A DNA stretch of 64,000 nucleotides, taken from an uncultured Candidatus Saccharibacteria bacterium (GTDB taxonomy: Bacteria > Patescibacteriota > Saccharimonadia > Saccharimonadales > 2-12-FULL-41-12). Location of the stretch: NCBI GenBank assembly GCA_947085855.1, contig CAMTYB010000001.1:564427-628426 (forward strand), written 5' to 3'. Of the stretch, positions 6,906 to 53,333 are shown one piece after another. Under the pieces are notes generated by a model. It had not been told where the DNA came from and searched no databases. It was given only the letters and a program-made list of their open reading frames with translations. The first letter of the stretch is position 1; the number at the start of each line of letters is the position of its first letter. The translations under genes were made by a program, and so were the position numbers.

Positions 6906-6981
6906 TGGTGGGGGTGGTTGGAATCGAACCAACTACCAAGCGGTTATGAGCCGCCTGCTCTAACCGATGAGCTACACCCCC
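6906..6981 (-). tRNA. tRNA with CAT anticodon; body resembles tRNA-Ile2 (lysidine-modified CAU) more than elongator Met
   Basis: The reverse complement folds as a 76-nt cloverleaf. Acceptor GGGGGTG/CACCCCC. Anticodon arm GGCGG-CTCATAA-CCGCT, close to E. coli ileX. T-loop TTCGATT. Encoded CCA. Confidence 0.8.
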
Positions 6982-13489: not shown

Positions 13490-13505
13490 ATGGTACTATC
13501 TAAGT

Positions 13506-14993
13506 ATGTTTAAAACACTTGATTACTACTTGCATAGAGTCACGATGCATAATTTACTACTCTTCAATCTTTCGGCTTTGGTAGTTCTGAGTCTTGTGTT
13601 TAGCCTGACTGGTTCGCTGCAATTTGAAACTACATCCTTGCTAGCAAGTGCGGTTATCTTAATGTCGGTATGTGTGGGCTTCAGTTTTCTATTTGCCAAG
13701 CTTTATGGCGCCACACTGACTGTTGGTTCGAGTGGCATTACTGGCTTGATTTTGTTCTGTATTTTTACACCACCCAAAGATGTAGGGGAGGCCATTACCT
13801 TGGCGCTCGTTGGTGCGCTGGCAATTGCTTCGCGCTATGTTTTGGCCATCAATCGACGACATATTTTTAATCCGGCTGCCATCGGCGCGGTTATTATTGG
13901 GCTGCTTGGTATTGTTCATGCCAGTTGGTGGATTGCCAATGACGTAATGGCGCCATTTGTCTTGTTGCTCGGCTTGTTGGTTATACGCAAGCTGCGACGC
14001 TGGGCGCTATTCGGCAGCTTTTTTGTTGTTGCCACTGCGCTAACGCTCGTTATGAACGCCGACACTGCTGCCACCACATCAGCGCTCCTGAAAGATACAT
14101 TCGTTTCGTGGCCAATCTTGTTCCTTGGCTTTTTCATGTTAACTGAGCCACTAACAACCCCACCACGACACAGACAACAGATAATCTATGGCGCTCTAGT
14201 AGGTGCCTTGGTAGGTTCCCCGCACCTGCATGTTGGGTCGGTGTTTTTGACACCTGAATTAGCGTTAGTTATCGGCAACCTGTATGCCTACAGCACGACC
14301 ATGCGGCAGCGGTTGAGCCTGAGGCTGCAGTCGAAAAAGGAAATTGCACCCGGTATCTTTGAGTTTGCTTTTAAGCCCAATGCTCGTCAAGAATTTCTGG
14401 CTGGCCAGTACGCAGAAGTCACCTTGCCAGTGCCTTTACTCAAACTGGACGCGCGCGGTAACCGACGCAGCTTTACGATAGCTTCAGCGCCAGGTAAGCA
14501 GGAGATGAGAATCGTTACCCGTTTTCCAGAGCGGGCCAGTAGTTTTAAACGGCAGCTTACTGGCCTCAAAAAGGGAGAGGCAATCTATATAAACTACATT
14601 GGCGGCGAGTTTGTGTTGCCAAAAGATCCAGATGAAAAGCTGGTTTTTGTAGCAGGTGGCATCGGCGTTACTCCATTTATAAGTATGGTAGAACATTTGG
14701 TTGAATCAAATCAGAAGCGAGACGTTACCTTGTTTTACCAAGTAGCAGATAAGAATCAGCTATTGTATGCGGAGCTCTGGCAAAAAGCAGAGAAGGTTGG
14801 TTTAAATCTGGTTCCGATGGTGGCAGGCAAGCAGTTTGATGCTAAAGTATTGCGCAAACACGTGTCAGATTTTAAAAATTGCCAGATTTATGTCTCTGGC
14901 CCACCGGGATTTGTGACGCATCAAGAGTCTGAACTGCGCACAGCAGGAGTGAAGCGGTCTCGGATTGTGACTGACTACTTTTCTGGCTATTAA
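13506..14993 (+). CDS. membrane-embedded FAD/NAD(P)-binding oxidoreductase (N-terminal 6-TM domain + C-terminal ferredoxin-NADP reductase-like module)
   Basis: RSFTIAS (FAD-binding R-x-F/Y-T/S) and GGIGVTPF (NAD-binding) motifs follow a ~230-aa polytopic domain. Confidence 0.7.
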   Translation: MFKTLDYYLHRVTMHNLLLFNLSALVVLSLVFSLTGSLQFETTSLLASAVILMSVCVGFSFLFAKLYGATLTVGSSGITGLILFCIFTPPKDVGEAITLALVGALAIASRYVLAINRRHIFNPAAIGAVIIGLLGIVHASWWIANDVMAPFVLLLGLLVIRKLRRWALFGSFFVVATALTLVMNADTAATTSALLKDTFVSWPILFLGFFMLTEPLTTPPRHRQQIIYGALVGALVGSPHLHVGSVFLTPELALVIGNLYAYSTTMRQRLSLRLQSKKEIAPGIFEFAFKPNARQEFLAGQYAEVTLPVPLLKLDARGNRRSFTIASAPGKQEMRIVTRFPERASSFKRQLTGLKKGEAIYINYIGGEFVLPKDPDEKLVFVAGGIGVTPFISMVEHLVESNQKRDVTLFYQVADKNQLLYAELWQKAEKVGLNLVPMVAGKQFDAKVLRKHVSDFKNCQIYVSGPPGFVTHQESELRTAGVKRSRIVTDYFSGY

Positions 14994-34232: not shown

Positions 34233-34290
34233 AATTCTTTATTTTAGATCTACCTAGAACAAGTATAGATTATAAAGTCATAAATTAGTA

Positions 34291-34338
34291 AAAAAGCTCC
34301 AACTTTAGTTGAGGCGTTTTTCTTTGCAGGGTATGTCC
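34291..34338. repeat. copy 1 of a ~48-bp repeated terminator-like element (A-run / imperfect hairpin GCYCCAAC-TTN-GTTGAGGC / T-run)
   Basis: About 42/48 identity with 34941..34988, read directly. Confidence 0.6.
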
Positions 34339-34940: not shown

Positions 34941-34988
34941 AAAAAAGCCCCAACTTTCGTTGAGGCGTTTTTCTTGGTAGAGCATGTC
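34941..34988. repeat. copy 2 of the ~48-bp repeated terminator-like element
   Basis: See copy 1. Confidence 0.6.
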
Positions 34989-36233: not shown

Positions 36234-36875
36234 CTAAGAGGCTAGTAACTCTGGTTTCCGTACGACTTGAATTACGGTACCACCAATTAAACCCTCCCAA
36301 TTATCTTGAGGATTTATGACTATCGGTTGAAAATCTTGCGAAGACTCAGAATGCAATACTATCAGCTCGTTTTCATAATCAAAATGGACACTTTTTATAT
36401 TTGATAGTCCTTCATGAATCACCGTCACTACCTCACCTTCTTTAGGTGTCTTTTTAGAACTGTCTACGATTACGTATGCTCCATTTTCTATATGATTTCC
36501 TCTAATTTTAGCTTTATTCATGGATTCGCCATCTACTTCTAATGCATAGAGGTCACTATAATTTGAGTTAGGCAGTAAAGATGCAGAAACTTTTAGAGTT
36601 CCAAGTTCATCTGATCCTGCAACGTGAGTTGCTGGTCCAGCATTTGCCTTTCCAAGAATTGGAATAGTAACTAAGCGAGCAGTTGTAGCGACTATGTTGC
36701 CCGCATTGCTAATGAGCCCTTCTTCCTTAAGCTTAATAATAATGTTCTTAACAATTTGCGGGTGCACGGAGCCACTGACTGGATTGGCTATTTGACGGCC
36801 AATTTCCCTATAACTCAGCTTATTGATATCCATCACCCGTGCTAAGCGTTGTATTTTTTCACGAGTTTCTAACAT
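36234..36875 (-). CDS. LexA-like / phage CI-like repressor (N-terminal winged HTH + C-terminal S24 self-cleaving peptidase)
   Basis: 213 aa. LexA-type DNA-binding domain (REIGRQIA....KLKEEGLI), Ser-Lys dyad GESM...(~25 aa)...KK. Confidence 0.7.
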   Translation of the reverse strand: MLETREKIQRLARVMDINKLSYREIGRQIANPVSGSVHPQIVKNIIIKLKEEGLISNAGNIVATTARLVTIPILGKANAGPATHVAGSDELGTLKVSASLLPNSNYSDLYALEVDGESMNKAKIRGNHIENGAYVIVDSSKKTPKEGEVVTVIHEGLSNIKSVHFDYENELIVLHSESSQDFQPIVINPQDNWEGLIGGTVIQVVRKPELLAS

Positions 36876-37716: not shown

Positions 37717-39060
37717 ATGAATAGTTCACTTTCAAATCAAAACAAAAATATCCAAATTAAATCAGTTAAAGTCAGCGAGCTAAAGGCAGCTGAATATAAC
37801 CCTCGCAAATGGAGTGAAAACTCCATAGCGCAACTAACAAAAAGCATTCAGCAGTTCGGATTAGTTGATCCTATTCTTGTAAATGGCTCTCCCGCAAGGA
37901 AGAACATCGTAATCGGCGGGCACTTCCGGCTAAAGGTTGCTAAGGATCTCGGCTATAAAGAAGTTCCGGTTGTCTATTTGCATATTCCGGATATTGAGCG
38001 GGAGCGAACACTTAACTTGCGGCTTAACAAAGCGGTCGGAGACTGGGACTGGGATTTACTCAAGGAATTTGATGAGTCACTATTAGATGAAGTTGGTTTC
38101 ACCAGTGAAGAACTTGATACCATCTTTGATCTCGATGATGACGAACCGGAGCAATTCGACCTCGATAAGGAACTCAAGAAATTAAATATTTCTGAAATCA
38201 AAGTTAAAAAAGGTGACGTCTACCAGCTGGGTGATTCCAGACTTATGTGTGGAGACTCAACCATTGAAGCAGAAATGCTGAAATTAATGAACGGCGAAAA
38301 AGCCGATATGTGCCTAACTGATCCTCCGTATATTTTAGATTATCTAAAAAGCGGTATTCGAAAAGGCAAACCAACTGAAGGCTTTGGTGCAAAACGCAAT
38401 CGTAAATATCTGGAAACTGACGAATTGCCGGACGACTTTACCGAACTGTGGATGGGCGGTATAGCAAAAATTGCAAAACCGGACTTCAGTATTATCGTAT
38501 ACGAAAATTGGAAGAATATCCCAGTTATCTGGGAAGAAATGGCTAAACGCTGGAAAGTAAAAAACATGATTGTTTGGCATTTGCCGAACCGACACCAAGG
38601 GTTCGGTGGTAAGTATAAGTTCTTCTCCAAACACGATATCGCGATGGTCGGTGCCAGCGGAGAAGTGCAATATAACCACGAAACTGAACCGGATGGTTTG
38701 CAGGAAGAGTATGAAACAGCTTTGTATGCGATAGCTGGGAAGCCCCATTGGCAAAACTACTCAAAAGGTAAACATCAACCAACTGACTTTATCGACTTCA
38801 ACGCAGCAGATGAAAAAAGCAGCGGGCAGGGAATCATATTCGGAGTAAAGCCACTTGAGATACTGATTCCATATATAAAGGTACTCACTAAACGCGGTGA
38901 CCTTATAGTTGAACCGTTCTGTGGCAGTGGCAGTACGCTTTGTGCCGCGACGAAGCTAAAACGCCGATGCTACATAATGGAAAAATCTCCGGTGTATGCT
39001 GAGGTGGCCATGGACAGATGGGAGAAAATGACTGGGCTAAAACGAAAGAAACTGTCATGA
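37717..39060 (+). CDS. ParB-like nuclease domain fused to an N6/N4 DNA methyltransferase (phage-type orphan MTase)
   Basis: N-terminal ParB/Srx fold (IVIGGHFRL). MTase motifs DPPY (CLTDPPYI) and FCGSGST. Confidence 0.8.
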   Translation: MNSSLSNQNKNIQIKSVKVSELKAAEYNPRKWSENSIAQLTKSIQQFGLVDPILVNGSPARKNIVIGGHFRLKVAKDLGYKEVPVVYLHIPDIERERTLNLRLNKAVGDWDWDLLKEFDESLLDEVGFTSEELDTIFDLDDDEPEQFDLDKELKKLNISEIKVKKGDVYQLGDSRLMCGDSTIEAEMLKLMNGEKADMCLTDPPYILDYLKSGIRKGKPTEGFGAKRNRKYLETDELPDDFTELWMGGIAKIAKPDFSIIVYENWKNIPVIWEEMAKRWKVKNMIVWHLPNRHQGFGGKYKFFSKHDIAMVGASGEVQYNHETEPDGLQEEYETALYAIAGKPHWQNYSKGKHQPTDFIDFNAADEKSSGQGIIFGVKPLEILIPYIKVLTKRGDLIVEPFCGSGSTLCAATKLKRRCYIMEKSPVYAEVAMDRWEKMTGLKRKKLS

Positions 39061-39458
39061 GTACGGCTACTAATAAAACGAAGGTGCTAGAGCAGCTCCG
39101 TAAAACTCCGCTGGTGCAAGTTGCTTGCCAGCGGGCGGGGATTGGCCGGGCAACCTATTACCGTTGGTTGAAAGCCGATGAAGCGTTTGCCGAAGCAGCT
39201 TTCGAAGCAATAGATCAGGGCACATCACTGGTAACAGATATAGCCGAAAGTCAGCTTATTAATGCCATTAAAGACCAGAATATGACGGCGATTATCTTTT
39301 GGCTGAAGCACCACCATGCAGCTTATGAAACTAGAGTCAGAGTTGATGGCCGGATAAAGCATCAAACCGAAGAATTAACACCCGAGCAGTCCGATTTGAT
39401 TGAGCGGGCTCTTAAAAACGCTGGCTTACTGCTGGCAGAAAGTGAGACAATCGAATGA
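39057..39458 (+). CDS. terminase small subunit-like HTH protein
   Basis: 133 aa. HTH QVACQRAGIGRATYYRWLK. ATGA overlaps with both the MTase stop and the TerL start. Start moved to the Met that overlaps the MTase stop. Confidence 0.45.
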   Translation: MSTATNKTKVLEQLRKTPLVQVACQRAGIGRATYYRWLKADEAFAEAAFEAIDQGTSLVTDIAESQLINAIKDQNMTAIIFWLKHHHAAYETRVRVDGRIKHQTEELTPEQSDLIERALKNAGLLLAESETIE

Positions 39459-41017
39459 AATACGAATCACCCTTCTCGCCTGAACTATGGCGGGAGATAA
39501 AAACTACGCGAAGTGTGCGTGTGAAGCTAGCTAGTGAGAGTTTATATAACTTTGCACACATCTATTTTCCAGGATACTTTGGATATGCAACTGCACCGTT
39601 CCAGCGTGAAATGTATATGATGCTAGAAGATCCAAATATTCGTCATCTTGGTATTGTCAGTTTTCGTGGTAGCGGTAAATCCAGTATTGTAACCACGTTC
39701 TTCTTGATGTGGGCAATACTCGGCAAGCAGCAAAAGAAATACGCTCTAATAGCCAGCCAAACTCAAGTCCAAGCCCGTAAGCACTTAGCTAATGCCAAAC
39801 AGGAATTTGATAGCAACGAACTGCTTGGAGATGACTTTGGTCCACTTAAGGAAACCAGTGATGAATGGGGTTCAATGTCACTGGTGCTACCAAAATACGG
39901 TGCACGAATCAGTGCCGTATCAAGCGAGCAAAGCATCAGAGGTACCAGGCACGGTTCACACAGGCCTGATCTAGTAATTGCCGATGATGTTGAAGACCTG
40001 CAATCGGTTAAAACTAGTGAAGGCCGGGAGAAAACCTTTAACTGGTATACCAGTGAGATATTGCCAGTTGGCGATCATACAACTAAGTTTGTATTGATAG
40101 GTAACTTACTTCATACCGACTCACTGATGATGCGGATGAAAGCCTTTAGCGAACGTCAGGCTGATCGATTTGTATTCAAAGAGTATCCTCTGCTCGATGA
40201 AAACGGAGTTTGTTTGTGGCCTGGTAAATATGACACCCCGGAAGCTATTGCGCGGGAAAAGATGGAGGCACCGAGCGAACGGGCATATTACCGAGAGTAT
40301 CTGCTAAAAATTCTGCCTGACAATATGCAGATAGTTAAGCCAGAAAACATTAAATATTACGATAATATTCCTCAGCAGCTGGCTGGCGGTTCATACCGCG
40401 TGGCAATTAGCGTTGACTTAGCAATATCCAAGAAAACCTCTGCCGATTATACGGCAATTGTCGTACTTGAAAAGCATGGCTACGGCAAAGATACCAAAAT
40501 CTACGTTCATCCTTACCCGATTAATAAGCGTAATCTCTACAGCGAAACCGTTCAGGACATAGCTTCTCTAAAAGCCCGACATACTTCAGCCGACATATAT
40601 ATTGAAGATGTAGGCATGCAGCGGGCTATTATAGAAATGTTAAAGCAAGAAAATATACCAGCTGAAGCAGTTCCGCTTAATGGGCGGGATAAAGAAGAGC
40701 GCTTGCAGGTGGCTTCCTTTTGGATTATTAATGGTACCGTTCAGTTTCCATACGAGGGCTGTCAAAAACTACTGGAACAAGTCATTGGTTTTGGGGTTGA
40801 AAGAGATGACCTTCTGGACGCGCTAACGCTCGGCATCATTCACCTTATGGAACAAAAGAATAAAGGACCAAGTATACGAGTTGGGTCAATTAGAGGGACG
40901 GTGTTTGACCGAGATATGCGTATGAAGTCAGTTTTTAGCGGAGCAGGTCGTTACCGCGTGTCTACTGCTTCAGATGAAGCTTTCTTCAGCTCGCCCACGG
41001 GGATTAGCATTTATTGA
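39455..41017 (+). CDS. phage terminase large subunit
   Basis: Walker A VSFRGSGKSS, Walker B LVIADDVED, C-terminal RNase-H-like nuclease Asp residues (ISVDLA, IEDVG, LDALTLG). Confidence 0.75.
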   Translation: MKYESPFSPELWREIKTTRSVRVKLASESLYNFAHIYFPGYFGYATAPFQREMYMMLEDPNIRHLGIVSFRGSGKSSIVTTFFLMWAILGKQQKKYALIASQTQVQARKHLANAKQEFDSNELLGDDFGPLKETSDEWGSMSLVLPKYGARISAVSSEQSIRGTRHGSHRPDLVIADDVEDLQSVKTSEGREKTFNWYTSEILPVGDHTTKFVLIGNLLHTDSLMMRMKAFSERQADRFVFKEYPLLDENGVCLWPGKYDTPEAIAREKMEAPSERAYYREYLLKILPDNMQIVKPENIKYYDNIPQQLAGGSYRVAISVDLAISKKTSADYTAIVVLEKHGYGKDTKIYVHPYPINKRNLYSETVQDIASLKARHTSADIYIEDVGMQRAIIEMLKQENIPAEAVPLNGRDKEERLQVASFWIINGTVQFPYEGCQKLLEQVIGFGVERDDLLDALTLGIIHLMEQKNKGPSIRVGSIRGTVFDRDMRMKSVFSGAGRYRVSTASDEAFFSSPTGISIY

Positions 41018-41065
41018 CAAGCAGACTAATATACTATACCCTATAGGGGTATAAGGAGATAGAGT

Positions 41066-41536
41066 ATGGAAGAAGGCAAAGCATTAAATTCAATGGCAAA
41101 AAGCGCAACGCTTCATTGTCTAACAGGTTGTGCGATCGGTGAAATTTTAGGTCTCGTCATTGGAACAGCGATAGGGCTTAGCACTATAGCTACAATTGCC
41201 TTAGCAGTTACATTAGCCTTTTTCTTTGGGTTTTTACTGTCAACACTGCCATTACTTAAAGTAGGGTTAGGTTTCTTCTCCGCGCTCTCAATAGTTTTTG
41301 CCGCTGACACATTGTCAATCGCAACTATGGAGGTGGTAGACAACGCAGTGATGGCTATAATACCCGGGGCAATGGAAGCAGGATTGGTTAATCCGCTTTT
41401 TTGGATCAGTATGCCGATTGCATTGACAGCAGCATTTTTTGCGGCTTACCCCGTAAATAAGTATCTATTAAAAAGAAATAAAGGCCATGCGTTGACCATG
41501 AAGTATCACGAAGGTCATGGAAGCCACCAGCATTAG
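41066..41536 (+). CDS. DUF4396-like membrane protein with a C-terminal His-rich tail (metal-associated)
   Basis: 4 TM helices and a YHEGHGSHQH C-terminus. Precedes csoR. Confidence 0.5.
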   Translation: MEEGKALNSMAKSATLHCLTGCAIGEILGLVIGTAIGLSTIATIALAVTLAFFFGFLLSTLPLLKVGLGFFSALSIVFAADTLSIATMEVVDNAVMAIIPGAMEAGLVNPLFWISMPIALTAAFFAAYPVNKYLLKRNKGHALTMKYHEGHGSHQH

Positions 41537-41546
41537 GAGAATTACT

Positions 41547-41831
41547 ATGACTAAATATGGATACGCCGAAAATAAAGTTTCAATCAATAAGCGACTTAAA
41601 CGAGCCGAAGGTCAGGTACGCGGTATTGCGAGAATGGTCGAAGAAGACAAATACTGTATAGATATACTAACTCAAATCACAGCAGCACAAGCCGCCTTGG
41701 ATAAGGTTGGTTTGCAACTACTATCTGAGCATACTAAGCACTGTCTATCGAATTCAAAAATCGGACCAAATGGCATTGATGAAAAGGCCGATGAAATGGT
41801 GAGCGCAGTAGGTAGAATGCTATCTCGATAA
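41547..41831 (+). CDS. csoR: CsoR/RcnR-family copper-sensing metalloregulator
   Basis: YCIDIL...EHTKHC (Cys-His-Cys triad). AGGAGA SD 7 nt upstream of the chosen ATG. Confidence 0.8.
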   Translation: MTKYGYAENKVSINKRLKRAEGQVRGIARMVEEDKYCIDILTQITAAQAALDKVGLQLLSEHTKHCLSNSKIGPNGIDEKADEMVSAVGRMLSR

Positions 41832-41853
41832 ATTAATTTACTAGGAGAATATT

Positions 41854-42258
41854 ATGGAAACTAGATCACTATTAATAGGAATTAGCAGCTTTATGGCTGG
41901 AGGCTTGTTAGTCTCAATTGCTGCAGTTACATTTGAAAAAGATAAGGAGACTGCATCAAATAGCTCTATGTCGTCTAGTATGCAGATGTCAGCAGATTCA
42001 TTAAAAGGTAAGAGCGGTGATGACTTTGATAAATCATTTATTACTGAAATGATTGCTCATCATGAAGGAGCAGTTGAAATGGCTAAATTAACTTCATCAA
42101 ATGCCAAACACGATGAAATAAAACAGTTATCTAACGATATAATTTCAGCCCAAGAAAAAGAAATTGGTCAAATGAAGCAGTGGCAAATGGATTGGGGTTA
42201 TAATAACTCTAATGACACTATGCAAATGGATCACTCAAAAATGAATATGGGACAATAA
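41854..42258 (+). CDS. DUF305 four-helix-bundle (copper-binding) secreted protein
   Basis: DFDKSFITEMIAHHEGAVEMAKL....IISAQEKEIGQMKQW motif. Confidence 0.7.
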   Translation: METRSLLIGISSFMAGGLLVSIAAVTFEKDKETASNSSMSSSMQMSADSLKGKSGDDFDKSFITEMIAHHEGAVEMAKLTSSNAKHDEIKQLSNDIISAQEKEIGQMKQWQMDWGYNNSNDTMQMDHSKMNMGQ

Positions 42259-42259
42259 C

Positions 42260-42655
42260 TTGGTCAAACCGAAACGGCTTGTAGATATTGCTGCAATAAT
42301 AGGCGTAATCTTCTTTATAGCTATAGTCGTTTATTTATCAAATAAAGAAGAACCAAAAGATAATCAACAGTTAAGTAATGTGAACGCAGCTCAGACGATT
42401 TACTATAATGATGGTGGATTTGATAAGGCATCAGTAACGATTGCTAAGGGTGAAACCGTAAAGTTTGTAAACAATACCGACAATGATCTATGGGTTGCTT
42501 CAGATCCCCACCCTCGCCATACTGATTTGCCAGGATTTGACGCACTCGGTCGAGCAAACGATGAATACGTATTTACATTCGATAAAGCTGGGACTTGGAA
42601 ATATCATAATCATAGCGCGGCAAGCCGTGAGGCCACAGTCGTGGTTACTGAGTAG
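42260..42655 (+). CDS. membrane-anchored cupredoxin-like domain protein (type-1 Cu site apparently lacking Cys)
   Basis: ETVKFVNNTD......GTWKYHNHSAASREATVVV resembles a plastocyanin-like strand pattern without the Cys ligand. Confidence 0.35.
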   Translation: MVKPKRLVDIAAIIGVIFFIAIVVYLSNKEEPKDNQQLSNVNAAQTIYYNDGGFDKASVTIAKGETVKFVNNTDNDLWVASDPHPRHTDLPGFDALGRANDEYVFTFDKAGTWKYHNHSAASREATVVVTE

Positions 42656-43552
42656 ATGAAACGTATTCTAAGTCCCAAATTGATTCTAATAATAAGCGCG
42701 TCGATAGTTCTTTTACTATCCCTCCTTATATTTAGACCGAAAGAAAAAACAGTGACTCAAAAAACGCTTACACCAGTTGCTTCAATTACGCACGCTCATG
42801 GTTTAGCAGTTAACCCAACTGATAATAGCAAAATATATATAGCTACTCATGAAGGTTTGTTTACACTAATTGATGAGAAGGAAATGTACCAGGTAGGCCA
42901 GAGCAAAGACGATTACATGGGGTTTACGGCGCACCCAAATAATCCAGATATTTTTTACAGTAGCGGTCACCCTGTGGCTGGCGGAAATATTGGATTTCAA
43001 AAATCTACTGATGGAGCATTTGAATGGAAGAAAGTTTCTGACGGAAATGAAGGACCAGTTGACTTTCATGCCCTTACAATCAGCCCTATTGATACTAATT
43101 TACTTTATGGTTGGTACAGAGGTAATATTCAAAGGTCTACAGATGAGGGTAACACGTGGCAAAGTATCCGGACTGCAAATCCAATTGTAAATCTTGTAGC
43201 CGATACAGCTGATAAAGATACGCTCTATGCGTCTGGCCCAAGAGGATTACAAAAGAGTACGGATGGTGGTCAGACGTTCACTACACTATTAGTTGGCTTC
43301 ACTTCGGCAATAGCGGTGAACCCAAGCAACGCAAAGCATGTCTTTACTTACAATGAAAAACTTCAGTTGGCTGAGAGTAAAGACGGCGGCCAAACCTGGC
43401 AAACTCGCCCTCAGGACTTTTCAGGCCAGACACCGTTGTTTATGGCGTTTTATAAAGCTGATCCAAAGATAGCCTATTTACTGACCGAAAAAAGTAATTT
43501 GTTCAAAAGTACTGATGGTGGCCAAACCTGGTTAAATATTACGAAATCGTAA
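42656..43552 (+). CDS. BNR/Asp-box repeat beta-propeller protein (Ycf48/sortilin-like), secreted
   Basis: Repeated STDGG(Q)TW / STDEGNTW Asp-box motifs. Confidence 0.6.
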   Translation: MKRILSPKLILIISASIVLLLSLLIFRPKEKTVTQKTLTPVASITHAHGLAVNPTDNSKIYIATHEGLFTLIDEKEMYQVGQSKDDYMGFTAHPNNPDIFYSSGHPVAGGNIGFQKSTDGAFEWKKVSDGNEGPVDFHALTISPIDTNLLYGWYRGNIQRSTDEGNTWQSIRTANPIVNLVADTADKDTLYASGPRGLQKSTDGGQTFTTLLVGFTSAIAVNPSNAKHVFTYNEKLQLAESKDGGQTWQTRPQDFSGQTPLFMAFYKADPKIAYLLTEKSNLFKSTDGGQTWLNITKS

Positions 43553-43560
43553 AAGTTATC

Positions 43561-44238
43561 TTACATCGACATTTGATGACCTTGCATCGAAGGTCCGCTT
43601 GAGCTAATATCATAACCCCACATCTTTGCCCAATCTTGCATATTGCCGATTTCAAGTGTCTGAGCATTAAAGATGTCTTCACTTAATTTTTTGATTTCAT
43701 CATGTTTGGCATTTTGGGCTGACTGGTTTGCCATATCGATTGCGCCCATATGATGGGCAACCATATCAATAATAAACTGCTTATCTAAATCGTCACCGGT
43801 TTTACCTTTCAGGCTCGCGGCCATAGCATCAATACCAGACTGACTCGGTTCTTTGTATTCATAACCCCACATCTGCGCCCAGCTTTTCATATCGGCAATT
43901 TCTCTAGTTTGCGCTTCAATAATTTGTCCGGCAAGCGTACGCAGTTCAGTGTGTTTGGCTTCCGTATCAACGAGCTGTGCCATAGCAATGGCACCCGCAT
44001 GATGTTCCGACATTAAGGTGATAAATGCCTTATCATATTCATCTCCAGTTTTTCCTTTCAATCCATCCGACATAGACATCATGGAAGAATTAAGGCTATT
44101 TTGGTCATTTGATGGAGCAGAGTTATTAGTCTGCTCTGCTTTCTTATCATCCTTTTTTAACGCCGCAGTTCCTGCACCTGCTAAGGCTAGTAAAATTATT
44201 ACCCCTATTAAAATTGTTAACTTTTTTGATTTACTCAT
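43561..44238 (-). CDS. secreted protein with two tandem DUF305 domains
   Basis: Two copies of D..F...M..HH.GAI.MA.....AKH.E.......I...Q..EI..M..W. Confidence 0.7.
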   Translation of the reverse strand: MSKSKKLTILIGVIILLALAGAGTAALKKDDKKAEQTNNSAPSNDQNSLNSSMMSMSDGLKGKTGDEYDKAFITLMSEHHAGAIAMAQLVDTEAKHTELRTLAGQIIEAQTREIADMKSWAQMWGYEYKEPSQSGIDAMAASLKGKTGDDLDKQFIIDMVAHHMGAIDMANQSAQNAKHDEIKKLSEDIFNAQTLEIGNMQDWAKMWGYDISSSGPSMQGHQMSM

Positions 44239-44251
44239 AAAATATTCTCCA

Positions 44252-44815
44252 TCAGGCCGTAGCCTTATTAGGTATGCTTGTTATTCGGATTAATGTTGGC
44301 GCTGCTTTATATATTGATCGTAACGCTATCATAATTGCCAAAACGTTAAGTCCAATTGTTAACATCTGCAACCGGCTATAACCTGCTCCTATGTAACTTC
44401 CCCCAGTTCCACCAACAAGACTTATAAGCGGTGCAAGTAAAGATCCCCCGCACGCTATGCAGTGCGAACTGATGAGCATGGTAAGTGTACCAGCAACCCT
44501 GCCTTTAGTCGATTTTGTCACGTTACGCATAAAGCGTATGACTTGAAAGTTAACCGCTAAAACTACAGACAGAATAAAAATACTAAAGGTTACTGGTTCA
44601 AAGAAAAAGCGTATAACACTCGCGTAAATATCTGTCAAAAAACCTAGTTTATCCAGCGGTGAAAGCAATGGTTGGTTAAATGTTAACTCCAAAATGAGCG
44701 CGATATTTGGTACTAATAACAAAAAACTTAATACTAAAAACCAATAGTATACAAAGCGTCCCCTTTCACCGGGTAAGCTAAGTAATCTTGCAATTGCTGT
44801 TGGTATACGTTTCAC
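44252..44815 (-). CDS. polytopic membrane protein with a CIACGG motif
   Basis: 187 aa, 5 hydrophobic segments. Confidence 0.4.
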   Translation of the reverse strand: MKRIPTAIARLLSLPGERGRFVYYWFLVLSFLLLVPNIALILELTFNQPLLSPLDKLGFLTDIYASVIRFFFEPVTFSIFILSVVLAVNFQVIRFMRNVTKSTKGRVAGTLTMLISSHCIACGGSLLAPLISLVGGTGGSYIGAGYSRLQMLTIGLNVLAIMIALRSIYKAAPTLIRITSIPNKATA

Positions 44816-44824
44816 GGATTTATC

Positions 44825-45352
44825 TTATGCACCTGCCTCAGGTGCTTTGCCGACATTTTGTCGGTACTGATCCATCAGTTTTTGCTCATCATAATTATCG
44901 AATTCAACGATATGATTCCATGATGCCATTACGATCGGTTTTTCTTGACCTTCCCTTGGCATAACTAATGCTTCAGATGACTGAAAATCTTTACGAGCAA
45001 ACGGTTTTGTAAATAAGCCCTTAAGCTTTTGCACTGTAGCCGGATCTGTATCGGGGCGATAGCTTATGACAACGCCACCATGCTCAAGGTTGTGAATATA
45101 GTCTTGAGCAGGTAGTTCTGATGGGTAGGCTTGATACGGAGCCACAACAGTATGTGGACCCGAGGTAGGTATTTCTGCCTTGTAATCCTTATACTCAGGT
45201 TGTCCTTGTTCGAGGTGATCGCGACCTTCATCGGCTTGATCATGCCCCAGGCGGCTTACCGGCGGCGGGGCGTCCTTCTTTTGAAATGCAAGTAAGCTAG
45301 CCATTCCAATGACCGCGAATGCAATAATTCCTATAAAAACTTTGTTTGACAC
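44825..45352 (-). CDS. DUF3105 domain membrane-anchored protein
   Basis: TSGPH...YIHNLEHGGVVISY motif typical of DUF3105. Confidence 0.55.
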   Translation of the reverse strand: MSNKVFIGIIAFAVIGMASLLAFQKKDAPPPVSRLGHDQADEGRDHLEQGQPEYKDYKAEIPTSGPHTVVAPYQAYPSELPAQDYIHNLEHGGVVISYRPDTDPATVQKLKGLFTKPFARKDFQSSEALVMPREGQEKPIVMASWNHIVEFDNYDEQKLMDQYRQNVGKAPEAGA

Positions 45353-45433
45353 GTTGTAAGCTCCAGTTAGTTAAACATTAAAATATACAGTCAAACCGAA
45401 ATAAATCGACATGACTTAAATAATGAATAAGGC

Positions 45434-45790
45434 CTAGTTTCGGAATTTACCGTATTCGAGTATTAGATCTGGCGGTCTACGTTTCAAATATGCCCAAAAT
45501 AAGACAGCGAAGGCGAGGCTATATGCAAAGTTTGTTAAAACAAGTTGGTTCTTTAAAATAGCAAAAGCTGGATACGGATCGTTATCTTCTTCTTCAATCT
45601 GTGGTTGCTGTTGCTTACCATTAACCATTGGAGCACAAACAGATTGGCACGGGTTATTATGACTCATCTTCATGCTGTCGTGAGGCATAGTTTGTTGCAT
45701 CAGAAGAGAATGGCCTGCGCCGACACCTAAAACGAGAACTAATCCGGTAGCTAAAGCTAGAAGTAATTTATGCAATTTTTTATGTATCAT
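45434..45790 (-). CDS. Met/His-rich small membrane protein (candidate Cu-binding)
   Basis: MQQTMPHDSMKMSHNNPCQSVCAPM stretch between two TM helices. Confidence 0.4.
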   Translation of the reverse strand: MIHKKLHKLLLALATGLVLVLGVGAGHSLLMQQTMPHDSMKMSHNNPCQSVCAPMVNGKQQQPQIEEEDNDPYPAFAILKNQLVLTNFAYSLAFAVLFWAYLKRRPPDLILEYGKFRN

Positions 45791-45852
45791 AACGATGTAG
45801 GTATTATATCAAATTTACTAAGCTATTAAATCTTTGCTGTCAGATTAGGTGC

Positions 45853-47307
45853 TTATTTATTTCTGCGGCATTCTGACTGCATAAATTCTATAGGAGCGTA
45901 ATTGTCGGTTAGCTTACGACTTTCAGACAAACCAAGAGTTATGCCGTCTTTTGGAAGCCAGTTTTGTTCGTTCTGACTATATGTAATAACTATATTCTGG
46001 CTTGATTCTAATGTTGTGTCTTTCAGAGGATATGCTTTTGAGAAGGGAAAATAGTTCTGGTAAGAGTTGTGAATGGAAGACAAAAGTTCACCGCAGGATC
46101 CTTGTTTTGAGCCGATAATATTGGCTGCTACTATGCCTCGCGGGCTTAAGGATCGTTTTAGCTGTTTAGCGTATTCATCCGTGGTTAAAGAAAAAGGTAT
46201 CAGCGTATCAGTGTAAACATCCACAAGTACAATGTCGTACCGCTTACTATTTTTGTTTAAGAATATACGTGCGTCTTGATTAATTACAGATACATTGGGC
46301 AGATCGGTATAACCAAAATACTTTTTAGCAATGGCAAGAAGCTCAGGGTCTATCTCGACAACATCAATTGCTGCTTCGGGATACTTTTGAGCCAAATGTT
46401 GAGGCAGTGTAAAAGCTCCTCCGCCTAGAATCAAAATACTGTCTTTTTTTGGTGCATTTTCTACCAGCTCTGCCATTTTTCGGGTGTAATCGAACACCAG
46501 TTCATTATCGCCGTCGCGATAAATGCCTGATTGTAACCCGCCGGGCCCAGCGGTAATGGCGCGAACCGGCCTGCCCTTATAGTCAATATCAACAATATTA
46601 TATGTTGCTGAGGGCGTATCGATTGTTGCGGCAATAGCAGGGTTCTGAGTGACAGATAGAGACAGTAAGGCAACAATCGCTATCAAAACGGCCGCGATGA
46701 GGCGTTTTTTTACTAAACGTTGCGGTTCGATTAACCAGCTGCTACAAAATAACAGGAAACCTATAATTAAGAGCGTTTCTTTTGAACCAATGTAGGAAAG
46801 GAAGATAAAACCGGTGAAAAAAGTTCCGGCGATGCTGCCGAGTGCGTTTAATGAACTTAGAGAAGCAATTGTGGTTCCGGTTGTTTGCAAGGATACATTT
46901 TTAAGCCGGGCAAGGTAGGGGCTTACGGCACCAATCAGAAAACTGGTTGGTGAAAAAAGCAGTAATGAAGCAATTAAGCCTTGTAATCGCGGATCATTGG
47001 TTAACTGCGGAATGTCAGTAAGAACAGCAGGAGCAATAATCAGTGTTGATACGGTAGCAAATGAACTTGCGAGAAGTATCAAGGCTATATCGAGTTGCTC
47101 TACGCGTTTGTCCGCAATCTTACCCCCGAATATATAGCCTGCAGATAGGGCGGCAATAATAACTCCAATAATACTTGTCCATGCGTAAATTGAACTTCCA
47201 ATAGTTGGAGCAAGCAGGCGAGTAGCAACTAATTCATATGTAAGTAGACTAAAGCCAGTTATAAAAGCAATGTAATCGTAACGGTGTAATGATTTAAGAC
47301 TCAACAT
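45853..47307 (-). CDS. fused polytopic membrane domain + spermidine/spermine synthase-like aminopropyltransferase domain
   Basis: N-terminal ~200 aa with 6-7 TM. C-terminal SAM-MTase-like fold with VLILGGGAFT and DVVEIDP. Confidence 0.55.
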   Translation of the reverse strand: MLSLKSLHRYDYIAFITGFSLLTYELVATRLLAPTIGSSIYAWTSIIGVIIAALSAGYIFGGKIADKRVEQLDIALILLASSFATVSTLIIAPAVLTDIPQLTNDPRLQGLIASLLLFSPTSFLIGAVSPYLARLKNVSLQTTGTTIASLSSLNALGSIAGTFFTGFIFLSYIGSKETLLIIGFLLFCSSWLIEPQRLVKKRLIAAVLIAIVALLSLSVTQNPAIAATIDTPSATYNIVDIDYKGRPVRAITAGPGGLQSGIYRDGDNELVFDYTRKMAELVENAPKKDSILILGGGAFTLPQHLAQKYPEAAIDVVEIDPELLAIAKKYFGYTDLPNVSVINQDARIFLNKNSKRYDIVLVDVYTDTLIPFSLTTDEYAKQLKRSLSPRGIVAANIIGSKQGSCGELLSSIHNSYQNYFPFSKAYPLKDTTLESSQNIVITYSQNEQNWLPKDGITLGLSESRKLTDNYAPIEFMQSECRRNK

Positions 47308-47379
47308 ATGACTATTATATGCCCAGGACTCATTAGATAATCGAAAATTGCCTAGACTTCCATAACCAGTGCGGTACTG

Positions 47380-48660
47380 TTGTGTTGTATGGAAACAAAA
47401 GCACCCGAACTCAAATACTGTCTGTATGCACGTAAATCGAGCGAATCAGACGAACGACAGATAATGTCGATTGATTCACAGCTTAACGAAATGAAGCTGA
47501 TTGCTCAAAAAGAAGGGTTGAATATAGTAAAAATCTTAGAGGAGAGTCACTCCGCTAAAGAATCGGGTAAGCGCCCAATCTTTAATGAGTTACTTAGTGG
47601 ATTTAGAAATGATGAGTATAACGCATGCTTAACGTGGGCACCTGATAGAATGAGCAGAAATGCCGGGGATTTGGGGTCACTAGTAGACCTTATGGATAGT
47701 AAGAAGCTAGCTCAAATCCGTACGTATTCGCAGACGTTTACAAATAATCCTAATGAAAAGTTCCTTCTGATGATTCTCTGCTCACAGGCCAAGCTTGAAA
47801 ACGATAACCGCGGCTTGAATATTCTACGAGGTATTAAAAATAAATGTGAAATGGGATGGCGGCCTGGCGTTGCACCACTAGGTTACATGAATCGCCACTT
47901 TGGAGGGGTTAAAGATATAATACCCGATCCAGATAGAGCACATGTCATTACGGAGATATATCAGAAAGCTGGCTATCACGGCTGGAGTGGTCGGCGTTTG
48001 AAAGAATGGTGCGACGAAATAGGTTTCACGAATCGGTCAGGCAAACCAGTAGCTTTGAGTCAAATCTTCTTGATTCTCATGAACCCGTTCTACTACGGTG
48101 AATTTGAGTATCCAGAAGGTAGTGGCAAATGGTTTAAGGGATCGCACGAGCCCTTAATATCCAAAGATATGTACGAACTTGTCCAACAATTTAGAGGAGC
48201 ATATAAAGGTAAATGGGGATCCAAACAGTTTGCGTACCGCGGTTTATTGCAATGTGGACACTGTGGAGGTGAAGTTACAGCAGAGGAGAAATTTAAAAAA
48301 CTTAATAACGGTGAAATTAACCGTCATGTATATTATCGATGCACAAAGAAAGTAGATTTAAAATGTCCAGAAAAGTACGTGAATGAAAAAATACTTGAAG
48401 AATTAATAGAGAAATTTATTACTCAGAATTTGGTGAAGCTCAAGATTGCAGATTCACTCAGAATAGATATTGAACGGCACTATGTTGTAGCTGAATCACT
48501 TGCCGATTACTACAAAGTATCGATGAAACTAGATAAGCCGCTGATTGAATACACGCGCTATGTGGTAACAAAAGGCAGGTTTGAAGAAAAAGTTGCTTTT
48601 ACAAAGGGCATTACTAGTAAGCTACTTATTAAAGATGGAGAAATTGTTTTTGCGAAGTAA
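47380..48660 (+). CDS. large serine recombinase (resolvase catalytic domain + recombinase domain + zinc ribbon/coiled coil)
   Basis: YARKSSESD....SIDSQ catalytic Ser region, Cys pairs CGHCGG....C..C. Confidence 0.75.
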   Translation: MCCMETKAPELKYCLYARKSSESDERQIMSIDSQLNEMKLIAQKEGLNIVKILEESHSAKESGKRPIFNELLSGFRNDEYNACLTWAPDRMSRNAGDLGSLVDLMDSKKLAQIRTYSQTFTNNPNEKFLLMILCSQAKLENDNRGLNILRGIKNKCEMGWRPGVAPLGYMNRHFGGVKDIIPDPDRAHVITEIYQKAGYHGWSGRRLKEWCDEIGFTNRSGKPVALSQIFLILMNPFYYGEFEYPEGSGKWFKGSHEPLISKDMYELVQQFRGAYKGKWGSKQFAYRGLLQCGHCGGEVTAEEKFKKLNNGEINRHVYYRCTKKVDLKCPEKYVNEKILEELIEKFITQNLVKLKIADSLRIDIERHYVVAESLADYYKVSMKLDKPLIEYTRYVVTKGRFEEKVAFTKGITSKLLIKDGEIVFAK

Positions 48661-48768
48661 AACTTAGTTAGAGTAAACTTGTTGATTCAATATTGCAGCC
48701 TAGAAGATCTAGACCGACTACAGTTAATATGCTAATGTATATAGGCTAAGATAAAAAATAAAAACAGT

Positions 48769-49938
48769 ATGAATATAAAAAGTTTACGTTTAAATAGAAC
48801 AGTTTTAATCATTAGTTTAATTGGCGTAGTTTTATTTTCTGCGTCTAATCTCCCTTTTGTTCAGGCTCAATCGCAACAAATCAAGGATCTTCAGCAGCAA
48901 ATTGATCAAGTTCAAAACGACAGTAATCAGAAACGGCATGAAGAAGGCGTACTGAGTATCGAGGCTTCATCGTTAAGTGATGCAATAAATAAGCTGCAAG
49001 GACAAATTAATTCTTCACAAGCACGTATTAGCCAACTTCAGAGTGAAGTAAACACACTTAAGCAGCAAATTACCGAGGCAGAAGCAGAGCTTGCTAAACA
49101 AAGAGGTATACTCGGTGAAACAATAAAAGCAATGTATCTTGAGGGTGATATAACAACTTTGGAGATGCTTGCAACAAGTAAAGACTTGAGCGAATTCTTT
49201 GATAAGCAACAATACCGTGAAAGTGTTAGTTCAAAAATCAAGGTAACACTAGATAAAGTAACCCAACTCAAACTAGAGCTAAATACAAAACGCGAAACAG
49301 TTGAAGCAACGCTTGCTGAACAACAAGCCTTACGAGATCAATTGGCGTCCCAGCGATCTGAAAAAGATCGAATATTAGCGCTTAATCAAGATCAACAAAA
49401 TCAGCTAGAGAATCAAATAAAGGCAAACAGTGGAAAGCTTGCTGAACTCAAGAAAAAACAAGCAGAAGCTGAAGCAGCGCTTGCTCGTTCGTTGAGTAGC
49501 GGCAGTTACAAGACTGCTCCGGCTGGACCAGTTTCAGCAGGTAGCGTAGTGGGAGCGGTCGGTAATACAGGACTTTCTTCTGGCGCACATCTTCATCTCG
49601 AAGCACGTAGTGGCAGTAGTGTAGTGAATCCAGTCCCTTATATAAAGTCCAAGCCGGTTAATATGCCTCCTGGATGGATTAGCCAAGGCTACGGAGTGGC
49701 TAATTCCTTATATCGCAGCGGTTATCACGGAGGCATTGACTACGCGTCTTCTAACGGACAGCCTATATTTGCAATTGACGGCGGTCAAATGTATCGTGGT
49801 TGCTCAAACCAAATGCTCGGTACCCGCAATAACGATTACGGCTATGTGGCAATTGTAGAGCATAGCAACGGCGTAAAAAGTATCTATGCTCACATGAGTG
49901 GCGGCCCTGCTACTTGTAACTACAATACGTATTACTAA
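48769..49938 (+). CDS. secreted M23 (lysostaphin-like) metallopeptidase with an N-terminal coiled coil
   Basis: YHGGIDY (HxxxD) and GAHLHLE (HxH) motifs. Long Q/L-rich coiled coil. Confidence 0.75.
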   Translation: MNIKSLRLNRTVLIISLIGVVLFSASNLPFVQAQSQQIKDLQQQIDQVQNDSNQKRHEEGVLSIEASSLSDAINKLQGQINSSQARISQLQSEVNTLKQQITEAEAELAKQRGILGETIKAMYLEGDITTLEMLATSKDLSEFFDKQQYRESVSSKIKVTLDKVTQLKLELNTKRETVEATLAEQQALRDQLASQRSEKDRILALNQDQQNQLENQIKANSGKLAELKKKQAEAEAALARSLSSGSYKTAPAGPVSAGSVVGAVGNTGLSSGAHLHLEARSGSSVVNPVPYIKSKPVNMPPGWISQGYGVANSLYRSGYHGGIDYASSNGQPIFAIDGGQMYRGCSNQMLGTRNNDYGYVAIVEHSNGVKSIYAHMSGGPATCNYNTYY

Positions 49939-50022
49939 TCTAGGTCGGTGGCAGAAAACTTACAGCAAGTAACCCATTTTAGAATTTAAAATGTAACGAT
50001 TAAACCTTAAATAGGAGTCGTT

Positions 50023-50352
50023 ATGGATCAAGAGATGCAAGAATGCATAAATAACTGTAATAATTGCAAACAAGTATGTCTAGAAACGCTTGAATATTGT
50101 AAGGATAAAGGTGGTGAACACGCTGATCCGGATCATCTAAAATTATTAGAAGATTGTGCCAAGATATGTGAGACGAGCGCAGACTTTATGGAACGCGAGT
50201 CTAATTTTCACACTAAGACATGTGCCGTTTGTGCTGAAATATGTGAACGCTGTGCTGAGGCTTGCGAGAAAATGGGAGACGATGAGCAAATGCAGAAATG
50301 TGCGCAAGCTTGCCGCGAATGTGCCGAATCATGTCGCCAGATGAGTAGTTAA
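50023..50352 (+). CDS. Cys-rich four-helix-bundle copper-binding/storage-like protein (DUF326/Csp-like)
   Basis: 109 aa with 17 Cys in CxxxC/CxxC spacing on predicted helices. Confidence 0.55.
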   Translation: MDQEMQECINNCNNCKQVCLETLEYCKDKGGEHADPDHLKLLEDCAKICETSADFMERESNFHTKTCAVCAEICERCAEACEKMGDDEQMQKCAQACRECAESCRQMSS

Positions 50353-51101: not shown

Positions 51102-51176
51102 TGGTAGCGGGGGCAGGACTCGAACCTGCGACCTTGTGGTTATGAGCCACACGAGCTGCCACTGCTCTACCCCGCG
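51102..51176 (-). tRNA. tRNA-Met (CAT), initiator-like
   Basis: The reverse complement CGCGGGGTAGAGCAG...GGCTCATAACC...GGTTCGAGTCC...CCCCGCTACCA closely resembles E. coli tRNA-fMet, including an unpaired C1 (C1:U72). Confidence 0.8.
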
Positions 51177-53030: not shown

Positions 53031-53333
53031 CTACCAGCTGCGTGGGCCGCCGCCACCACGGTTGCCGCCATCGCGAGGAGGACGGTCAGTTTGTGGACGG
53101 GCTTCGTTGACACGGATGGTTCGGCCACCGAGGTCGCTATTGTTCATAGCGGCTTCAGCTGCTTTACCTTCGTCGTCGTTTTCGAATTCAACAAAACCAA
53201 AGCCTTTGCTGCGGCCAGTTTCGCGATCAGTGATGATGCGAGCACTCGCTACGCTGCCGTGTTCGGCAAAAGCGGCTTTGAGTTCGTCTTCGGTGGTATT
53301 GAATGGTAGACCACCGACATATAGTTTGTACAT
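53031..53333 (-). CDS. RRM-type RNA-binding protein with a Gly/Arg-rich tail
   Basis: RNP2 LYVGGL and RNP1 KGFGFVEF motifs, then a C-terminal RGG-like region. Confidence 0.85.
   Translation of the reverse strand: MYKLYVGGLPFNTTEDELKAAFAEHGSVASARIITDRETGRSKGFGFVEFENDDEGKAAEAAMNNSDLGGRTIRVNEARPQTDRPPRDGGNRGGGGPRSW

Follow-up and report, generated by a model that had tools for sequence, protein, structure and literature searches.

A predicted copper-resistance gene set headed by DUF4396 in the cargo slot of a satellite-like element of Saccharibacteria

Background

CsoR biology has so far centred on copper efflux by CopA and CopZ, and the question arises of what such a Cu(I)-sensing repressor governs where neither partner is encoded at its side. 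This situation is found in a stretch of 64,000 nucleotides (nt) from an uncultured Candidatus Saccharibacteria bacterium (GenBank assembly GCA_947085855.1, contig CAMTYB010000001.1, positions 564,427 to 628,426; the whole stretch is hereafter called the window, and positions are counted from its first letter), in which csoR is the second gene of an operon headed by a gene for a DUF4396 membrane protein. An earlier note on this DNA had described this operon and a convergent one as an unusual copper-handling gene set and, from the absence of CopA, had proposed that copper is sequestered rather than exported. The locus was reanalysed with Pfam and NCBIfam profile searches for domain calls, sequence matches to solved Protein Data Bank (PDB) structures, and PHROGs for phage genes. 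The reading that we favour, and hold to be reasonably probable, is that of a copper-resistance island in a Saccharibacteria chromosome, carried as the cargo of a small integrative element, in which DUF4396 would export Cu(I) in place of CopA.

A predicted CsoR operator ahead of DUF4396

All open reading frames (ORFs) of the earlier note were confirmed at the same coordinates, and every domain family that it had named was recovered by Pfam or NCBIfam (DUF4396, CsoR, DUF305, BNR, DUF3105, spermidine synthase, M23 and DUF326/Csp). The plus operon and the region ahead of it comprise the following features.

41014..41019, plus strand: TTGACA, a perfect -35-like hexamer read from the sequence, putative promoter element
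41036..41052, no strand assigned: predicted CsoR operator ATACCC-TATA-GGGGTAT (ATACCCTATAGGGGTAT), sole perfect match in 64 kb
41066..41536, plus strand: DUF4396 four-helix membrane protein (Pfam, E=3e-40)
41547..41831, plus strand, alternative start 41517: CsoR-family Cu(I)-sensing repressor (Pfam PF02583 Trns_repr_metal, E=2e-28)
41854..42258, plus strand: membrane-anchored single-unit DUF305 protein, CopM-like (Pfam, E=1.5e-36, half of the model matched)
42260..42655, plus strand: membrane-anchored Cys-less cupredoxin (family profile; sub-threshold cupredoxin matches in Pfam)
42656..43552, plus strand: membrane-anchored BNR/Asp-box beta-propeller (Pfam BNR/Sortilin; above the NCBIfam F510_1955 cut-off)

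The regulator scored 99.2 bits against PF02583 (gathering threshold 22.8). The Cys-His-Cys site ascribed to it earlier is borne out by the alignment of its YC...HxxxC ligand triad with that of the Streptomyces lividans CsoR structure 4ADZ (E=2.5e-24) and also with 4M1P and 2HH7, the Mycobacterium tuberculosis fingerprint C36/H61/C65 being present. The ligands are C47, H72 and C76 when numbered on the 104-amino-acid (aa) form, and the start at 41547, which gives 94 aa and is the one assigned on identical contigs, is the more likely. RicR was the best NCBIfam model, yet with 102 bits against a cut-off of 175. Ahead of DUF4396 the elements follow one another in the order TTGACA-N16-ATACCCTATAGGGGTAT-AAGGAGA-N6-ATG, the operator standing between the hexamer and the ribosome-binding site of DUF4396, and a scan of the 64 kb for ATACCC-N4-GGGGTAT returned the one perfect match, every other match carrying 3 mismatches and occurring at the frequency found in shuffled sequence. 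A weak -10 hexamer, TACCCT (41037-41042), lies 17 nt past TTGACA and inside the operator, so that bound CsoR would be expected to occlude the promoter. A TACCC-N4-GGGGTA box also precedes csoR in 10 relatives (L005, L009-L015, L056 and L083), one of which (L009) has extra copies upstream of its DUF3105 gene.

The association between this box and DUF4396 extends far beyond the present locus. A search for DUF4396 homologues yielded more than 8000, with 73-89% identity among the best 120. Across 63 independent DUF4396 loci, whose GC (guanine plus cytosine) content spans 0.41-0.74, a CsoR box lies no more than 200 nt from the start of the DUF4396 ORF in 38, the density at these starts being 1.56 per kb, which is 63-fold above the 0.025 per kb of the remaining sequence of these loci; of the ten boxes counted as outside, nine still lie a short way upstream of the true DUF4396 start or of a csoR that precedes it, and the boxed loci include some without csoR nearby. 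CsoR or DUF305 is encoded within 1.5 kb of DUF4396 in 19 of 29 non-redundant metagenome loci with flanks, and a stand-alone DUF4396-CsoR-DUF305 cassette recurs in L088-L092, L096, L097, L101, L102, L109, L134, L150, L154, L160 and L171. Among the 16 loci having at least 4 kb on both sides, a single one has a P-type ATPase gene within ~8 kb of DUF4396. To judge from these sequences, DUF4396 is a core member of the CsoR regulon across phyla.

In the alignment of the family, the first helix carries the invariant residues H17-C18-x3-C22-x3-E26 and the third helix D81...M88-E89-x2-D92-N93, a further invariant motif being K-G-H-A-L. The N- and C-termini of the homologues are variable and rich in His (five of the six His residues of the window protein fall within its last 16 residues), and in L092 (3239-3859, P0132; gene order csoR-HMBD::DUF4396-DUF305) the heavy-metal-binding domain HMBD (PF19335) is fused to the DUF4396 N-terminus. 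This domain is otherwise found on P-type ATPases, where it is cytosolic. Because both tails of DUF4396 are on the same side, the HMBD is cytosolic in the ATPases, and the intramembrane His, Cys and carboxylate residues offer suitable chemistry, the protein fits a Cu(I) exporter and is, as far as its sequence goes, a credible one.

DUF4396 (73-89% identity among the best 120) and the CopA of Saccharibacteria (74-86%) are far more conserved than their neighbours, such as DUF3105 (30-60%). The high conservation of DUF4396, together with the wide GC range of its loci, suggests strong constraint and frequent horizontal transfer.

Predicted surface and storage proteins of the copper set

The minus operon and the two genes to its right that the earlier note had included encode the following proteins.

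43561..44238, minus strand: CopM-family double DUF305 protein, membrane-anchored (Pfam, full DUF305, E=1.4e-47)
44252..44815, minus strand: four-segment membrane protein with an intramembrane H-C-I-A-C-G-G motif (no Pfam or NCBIfam family)
44825..45352, minus strand: DUF3105 protein, membrane-anchored (Pfam, E=2.5e-24)
45434..45790, minus strand: 118-aa peptide with two transmembrane segments, MPHDSMKMSHNNPCQSVC and a C-terminal RRPPDL motif (no family)
45853..47307, minus strand: fused major facilitator superfamily (MFS)/spermidine synthase (Pfam Spermine_synth; NCBIfam NF037959, E=4e-75)
48769..49938, plus strand: coiled-coil M23 peptidase (Pfam)
50023..50352, plus strand: Csp3-type cytosolic copper storage protein (PF03860, DUF326/Csp)

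The plus and minus operons are convergent, with stop codons (43552 and 43561) 8 nt apart. No terminator-like hairpin is seen between them (43552-43561), so that the 3' ends of the transcripts would overlap.

Each of the DUF305, DUF3105, cupredoxin and BNR proteins has a single N-terminal membrane anchor, which fits a location at the cell surface. The distinction previously drawn between a single and a tandem double DUF305 protein holds, as half and the full model, respectively, were matched. The double protein (43561-44238), with HH motifs at 79-80 and 162-163 and 17 Met, agrees with CopM in these features, scoring 109.7 bits against the NCBIfam CopM metallochaperone model (cut-off 90) and matching the CopM structure 5FEJ in the PDB (E=9e-22). 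The single protein (41854-42258) also has an HH motif, together with 13 Met, and is termed only CopM-like because its score of 69.3 bits falls under the 90-bit cut-off. CopM, whose two DUF305 units carry HH motifs, is a Met-rich Cu(I) binder of the periplasm or the extracellular space and reduces cellular copper even without the CopBAC pump (PMC4335983).

As read previously, the 131-aa cupredoxin (42260-42655) contains no Cys. A 9-sequence profile of its family matched plastocyanin and amicyanin (~1e-5 to 4e-7) and the cupredoxin domain of nitrite reductase (3e-8), which places it in the cupredoxin fold; its invariant motifs are H-P-x-H and Y-H-x-H, the latter replacing the blue-copper Y-C-x-P-H, and the Cys thiolate ligand that a type-1 blue copper site has in the C-terminal loop is absent. 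Homologues occur in L005, L019, L021, L022, L024, L032, L052 and L070. The BNR protein has a 42% identical homologue in L005, and BNR proteins are also found near DUF3105 and DUF4396 in other loci.

Within the minus operon, the CxxC membrane protein (44252-44815) has four hydrophobic segments and the sequence C119-I-A-C122-G-G; homologues with G-x-x-C-[AI]-[AS]-C-G adjoin DUF3105 in L005, L019, L023, L041, L052, L064, L093 and L095. DUF3105 itself shows H46 and H87-N-x-E90-H91-G-G to be invariant in two alignments, and its AlphaFold2 (AF2) model (predicted local distance difference test score, pLDDT, 92.3) is that of a membrane-anchored alpha/beta domain with no significant PDB match by sequence or by fold. 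The 118-aa peptide, rich in potential ligands (6 Met, 5 His and 2 Cys) and preceded by an extended -10-like TGATATAAT, has homologues in L005 (two copies), L008, L093 and L095, all of them copper loci. Among the loci sampled, both the CxxC membrane protein and the RRPPDL peptide are confined to copper loci.

The Csp protein (50023-50352) has 16 Cys, one fewer than counted previously, and no signal peptide or hydrophobic N-terminus, as is proper to Csp3; it matches the Csp3 structures 3LMF (3e-28), 6ZIF (4e-17) and 5FIG (9e-12), and in L005 a 51% identical Csp is encoded beside csoR. Csp3 proteins, four-helix bundles of the cytosol lined with Cys, give protection from copper (PMC5171941). CopM-type DUF305 proteins and Csp3 are both copper binders known from experiment (PMC4335983, PMC5171941). 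The interpretation of these genes as a copper-handling set is supported.

Two genes formerly counted in this set probably do not belong to it. No SpeE-like homologue of the fused MFS/spermidine synthase was found in any other copper locus, and its gene is probably a passenger rather than a copper component. The M23 peptidase was rejected as a copper component, not being conserved with the copper genes; it is a recurrent neighbour only in L095, where it adjoins the unit of 118-aa peptide and DUF3105, and in L009.

Related loci and the missing ATPase

A tblastn search of the 64 kb with the P-type ATPases of three relatives and the HMA protein of L005 found neither a P-type ATPase nor an HMA protein, and the earlier statement that CopA and CopZ are lacking thus holds for the locus and for the window; compared with a canonical csoR-copZA operon, both partners of csoR are missing. 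Domain scans revealed no metal exporter among the other window ORFs, and the only ORF product of at least 600 aa is an fn3 protein.

A scan of species-representative genomes with a DUF3105 alignment assigns the locus to Candidatus Saccharibacteria and showed that the family occurs throughout Patescibacteria and Chloroflexota, a 93% identical match being on a fragment of a metagenome-assembled genome (L008). All nine closest Saccharibacteria loci (L009-L015, L017 and L020) have a P-type ATPase gene no more than a few kb from DUF3105, and in seven of them csoR is present too, the order being box-csoR-copA-DUF305x2-DUF3105 or box-csoR-DUF305x2-DUF3105-copA. Three further loci deserve description: (i) L093, whose DUF3105 is 58% identical, has the order csoR-copA-121aa-YHS-DUF305-DUF3105...serine recombinase, (ii) L005 encodes homologues of nearly the entire accessory set (BNR 42%, two RRPPDL peptides, DUF3105 43%, cupredoxin 36%, double DUF305, CxxC protein 31%, Csp 51% and CsoR) and additionally an HMA protein, two ATPases, a DsbD-cupredoxin fusion and a ZIP transporter, and (iii) L095, the closest relative with context (DUF3105 68% identical), keeps peptide, DUF3105, CxxC protein and double DUF305 together as a four-gene unit, with neither an ATPase nor csoR on its 9.6 kb contig. 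In L014 (8269-10005; Saccharibacteria UBA2018), about 4-5 overlapping DUF305 matches directly upstream of DUF3105 represent either one CopM-like protein of several units or genes arrayed in tandem.

Since related loci pair them with csoR and copA, DUF3105 and CopM, like the genes that go with them, are accessories of CsoR and CopA typical of the lineage, and as a rule they add to efflux rather than stand in for it. The gene set is not unusual for its lineage, as related Saccharibacteria normally have DUF3105 and CopM within csoR-copA operons; the distinctive trait of this locus is the lack of an ATPase gene nearby. The clustering of the copper genes is not due to chance, because the same families co-occur in related loci and because a unique CsoR operator stands ahead of the plus operon.

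The cargo slot of a satellite-like element

Two features had been overlooked: a large serine recombinase gene (47380-48660) between the minus operon and the M23 gene, and the position of the copper set inside a terminase/serine-recombinase element, whose genes are listed below.

36234..36875, minus strand: S24 (LexA/CI-like) repressor, probable left-hand part of the element (Pfam Peptidase_S24, E=5e-13)
37717..39060, plus strand: ParB_N-fused N6/N4 DNA methyltransferase (Pfam)
39018..39458, plus strand: small terminase subunit, TerS (PHROGs, E=3.5e-9; kept beside TerL in related elements)
39455..41017, plus strand: large terminase subunit, TerL, whose end delimits the cargo slot on the left (phrog_38, E=2.6e-81)
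47380..48660, plus strand: large serine recombinase (Resolvase + Recombinase + Zn_ribbon_recom)

The slot runs from 41018 to 47379 (6.4 kb), the serine recombinase forming its right border, and contains all ten genes of the two operons, of which nine are copper-associated and one is the MFS/spermidine synthase passenger. The backbone methylase-TerS-TerL-[interval]-serine recombinase occurs in at least 10 further copies in IMG/VR (at least 11 in all), with intervals of 0.2-9 kb that carry Type III and Type IIG restriction-modification systems, SNF2/PLD proteins, PIF1 helicases and reverse transcriptases. These elements were found with a two-sequence TerL alignment, the TerL relatives on IMG/VR contigs showing 34-54% identity; scans of viral contigs with a single TerL sequence or with the DUF4396 alignment gave no matches. 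Copies of the ParB-methyltransferase with 62-78% identity lie at the same position in L096, L176, L181, L182, L184-L188 and L190, homologues of the S24 repressor stand upstream of it in L187 and L191, and serine recombinases with 45-68% identity lie downstream of TerL in L096, L177-L181, L184-L188 and L190. In L093, L017, L185 and L186, copper clusters likewise have a related recombinase at their flank. In L096, which shares the methylase (74%), TerS (52%), TerL (44%) and serine recombinase (67%) with the window, the DUF4396-CsoR-DUF305 cassette (74%, 69% and 57%, respectively) sits beyond the recombinase.

An intact prophage was considered and dismissed, for TerS and TerL are present, but no portal, capsid or tail family was recovered by PHROGs or Pfam among the flanking ORFs scanned; the tblastn survey of related elements, which used window proteins as its only queries, is blind to structural genes. 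By its genes, the element looks like a terminase-encoding phage satellite of Saccharibacteria, and the copper set is the cargo of this satellite-like integrative element, whose mobility is predicted.

The GC content dips to 0.40-0.44 over ~28-52 kb (versus 0.45-0.50), and a tRNA-Met gene lies just to the right of the island (51102-51176), a second one being located at 6906-6981. The tRNA-Met gene and the GC dip may together be an integration landmark. A 48-nt intergenic repeat is also present at 34290-34337 and 34941-34988 (651 nt apart, 88% identity), with a hairpin-like core AAAAAAGC[TC]CCAACTTT.GTTGAGGCGTTTTT; possible roles are those of a repeated terminator or of a regulatory element within the mobile-element region.

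Efflux, sequestration or acquisition

On the reading that we favour, CsoR would occupy the operator at 41036-41052, over the likely -10, when copper is low and so silence DUF4396, csoR, DUF305, cupredoxin and BNR; Cu(I) bound at the Cys-His-Cys site would release it. DUF4396, with its intramembrane His/Cys/carboxylate site and cytosolic His-rich tails, would then most likely expel cytosolic Cu(I), replacing CopA. The analysis shows the domain identities, the operator and its conservation, the synteny, the window's lack of an ATPase and the architecture of the cargo slot, whereas this copper responsiveness, the substrate and direction of DUF4396 transport and the roles of DUF3105, the CxxC protein, the 118-aa peptide, the cupredoxin and the BNR protein are inferred. 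The anchored CopM-like DUF305, the all-His cupredoxin and the BNR protein would retain copper at the cell surface, the minus operon (Met/His/Cys peptide, DUF3105, CxxC protein and CopM) may provide a second surface-binding module outside the reach of a CsoR box, and Csp3 would act as a cytosolic Cu(I) buffer.

Several observations weigh against this scheme. No second CsoR box within 3 mismatches was found upstream of the minus operon, the 118-aa peptide gene, DUF3105 or csp, so that copper regulation of the minus operon and csp is unsupported in this genome. The AF2 model of DUF4396 is only moderate (pLDDT 69) and Foldseek found no structural analogue for it; the fold search with DUF3105 gave only a weak thioredoxin-like resemblance (E ~0.1), with no recognisable relative. 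A search for att-type direct repeats over 26-53 kb returned short or chance pairs only, and neither attachment (att) sites nor an empty site was found. Large serine recombinases do not need att direct repeats. As the closest relatives mostly have copA beside DUF3105 and CopM, the source genome, of about 0.82 Mb, may well carry copA elsewhere.

This last point leads to the alternative that we take most seriously, though we think it a good deal less probable than export by DUF4396: the locus might be an accessory module only, a conventional CsoR-controlled CopA elsewhere performing the export and the local genes, DUF4396 included, binding, chaperoning or buffering copper. DUF3105 and/or CopM do occur with a P-type ATPase, usually along with csoR, in the nine closest loci and in L093, L005 and L083, and the CopA of Saccharibacteria is very widespread and conserved, its best 120 homologues having at least 74% identity. 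Yet the 64 kb window has no ATPase, the DUF4396-CsoR-DUF305 cassette is without one within ~8 kb in 15 of 16 long loci, and the DUF3105 unit of L095 likewise lacks one on its 9.6 kb contig; that no CopA from the source genome appeared among the best 120 matches to the CopA of the closest relative is weak evidence in the same direction.

The proposal of the earlier note, sequestration rather than efflux, stands in part. That DUF305, DUF3105 and the Met/His-rich peptide bind copper outside, and Csp3 inside, agrees with the activity of CopM without CopBAC (PMC4335983), with the protection that Csp3 gives from copper toxicity (PMC5171941) and with surface proteins that are all membrane-anchored and rich in His and Met. 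The other half, that no efflux takes place and DUF4396 is not a transporter, is in our view unlikely. It does not follow from the missing CopA, as DUF4396 is transporter-like and CsoR-boxed in most loci; stoichiometric binders saturate; the sole CsoR-regulated operon is headed by this polytopic protein, in whose membrane part Cys, His and acidic residues are invariant and whose tails are metal-binding, and both csp and the larger binding operon are outside the CsoR box. Copper acquisition, with DUF4396 as importer and surface proteins that capture copper for a cuproenzyme, appears very improbable: CopM-like, cupredoxin-like and Csp proteins can be chaperones or stores, and a role of Csp3 in copper delivery has been discussed in Bacillus subtilis (PMC9484137), but derepression of CsoR at Cu(I) excess is the wrong logic for an importer, relatives tie the same genes to copper-exporting ATPases, and no cuproenzyme gene was found in the window.

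Remainder of the window

Outside the element the window is ordinary chromosome, encoding UbiA, Dus, ComEC, a sigma-70 factor, a two-component pair and a DEAD helicase, as well as an ABC-2 transporter, ApbE, GH10, MFS/MarR and an RRM protein. At 12578-14993 the ApbE flavin transferase gene adjoins that of a 495-aa protein in which an NQR2/RnfD-like membrane domain is joined to a NAD-binding oxidoreductase domain, a fusion unusual in a reduced genome. The RRM protein (53031-53333) is a stand-alone RRM_1 domain of 100 aa (E=1e-23), kept on a contig of the same organism (L001).

Significance

A predicted CsoR operator stands ahead of DUF4396 here and in dozens of independent loci with a GC content of 0.41-0.74. 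In the literature searched (7.7 million PMC papers and bioRxiv), DUF4396 has one passing mention and DUF3105 one mention, and DUF4396 has no solved structure. The comparative evidence nominates DUF4396 as a candidate new copper-transport family that can be tested directly, and provides a CsoR-regulon or copper context for four orphan families, namely DUF4396, DUF3105, the CxxC membrane protein and the RRPPDL peptide. It also suggests that the ultra-small, episymbiotic Saccharibacteria gain metal resistance as cargo of an element that otherwise carries defence genes, which bears on adaptation in reduced genomes. Tentatively, and going well beyond this locus, DUF4396 might be a family, so far overlooked, of small Cu(I) efflux transporters with four helices, probably oligomeric and regulated by CsoR, forming with its DUF305 surface partner a minimal ATPase-free copper-resistance cassette that spreads horizontally across phyla and, in Saccharibacteria, rides satellite-like elements otherwise carrying anti-phage defence genes.

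Comparison with known systems

With the csoR-copZ-copA operons of B. subtilis, M. tuberculosis (cso) and S. lividans, the locus shares a Cys-His-Cys CsoR, a predicted autoregulated operon and a G/C-tract inverted-repeat operator over the promoter; unlike them, the window has no P1B-ATPase or HMA chaperone, and DUF4396 comes first among the regulated genes. That a CsoR-family regulon can lack an ATPase is exemplified by mycobacterial RicR, under whose control lie lpqS, mymT, socAB, Rv2963 and mmcO (PMC3944814). Both systems combine a CsoR-family repressor with membrane proteins or lipoproteins, a cytosolic Cys-rich copper binder and no ATPase, whereas the regulated genes, set apart here by name, differ, and M. 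tuberculosis also has CsoR-ctpV. The idea that LpqS is a DUF305 protein was dropped, the two terms not having been found together in the searched literature.

The double DUF305 protein resembles CopM of Synechocystis PCC 6803 in its two units, two HH motifs, Met-richness and (here predicted) extracytoplasmic location. In Synechocystis, CopM is under two-component (CopRS) control in a diderm, whereas the window CopM is membrane-anchored, belongs to a Saccharibacterium, has no CsoR box and is accompanied by DUF3105, the CxxC membrane protein and the Met/His peptide. The Csp protein agrees with Csp3 proteins in its ~110 aa, its match to four-helix bundles lined by Cys and its 16 Cys, no difference being detected at the sequence level; its gene has no CsoR box. 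The satellite-like element differs from phage satellites and phage-inducible chromosomal island (PICI)-like islands in combining TerS, TerL and a ParB-methylase with a large serine recombinase in a Saccharibacteria host. It is like them in having a repressor, packaging genes and an integrase with no capsid or tail genes matched, and likewise in its hypervariable slot, which in other copies of the element holds defence genes.

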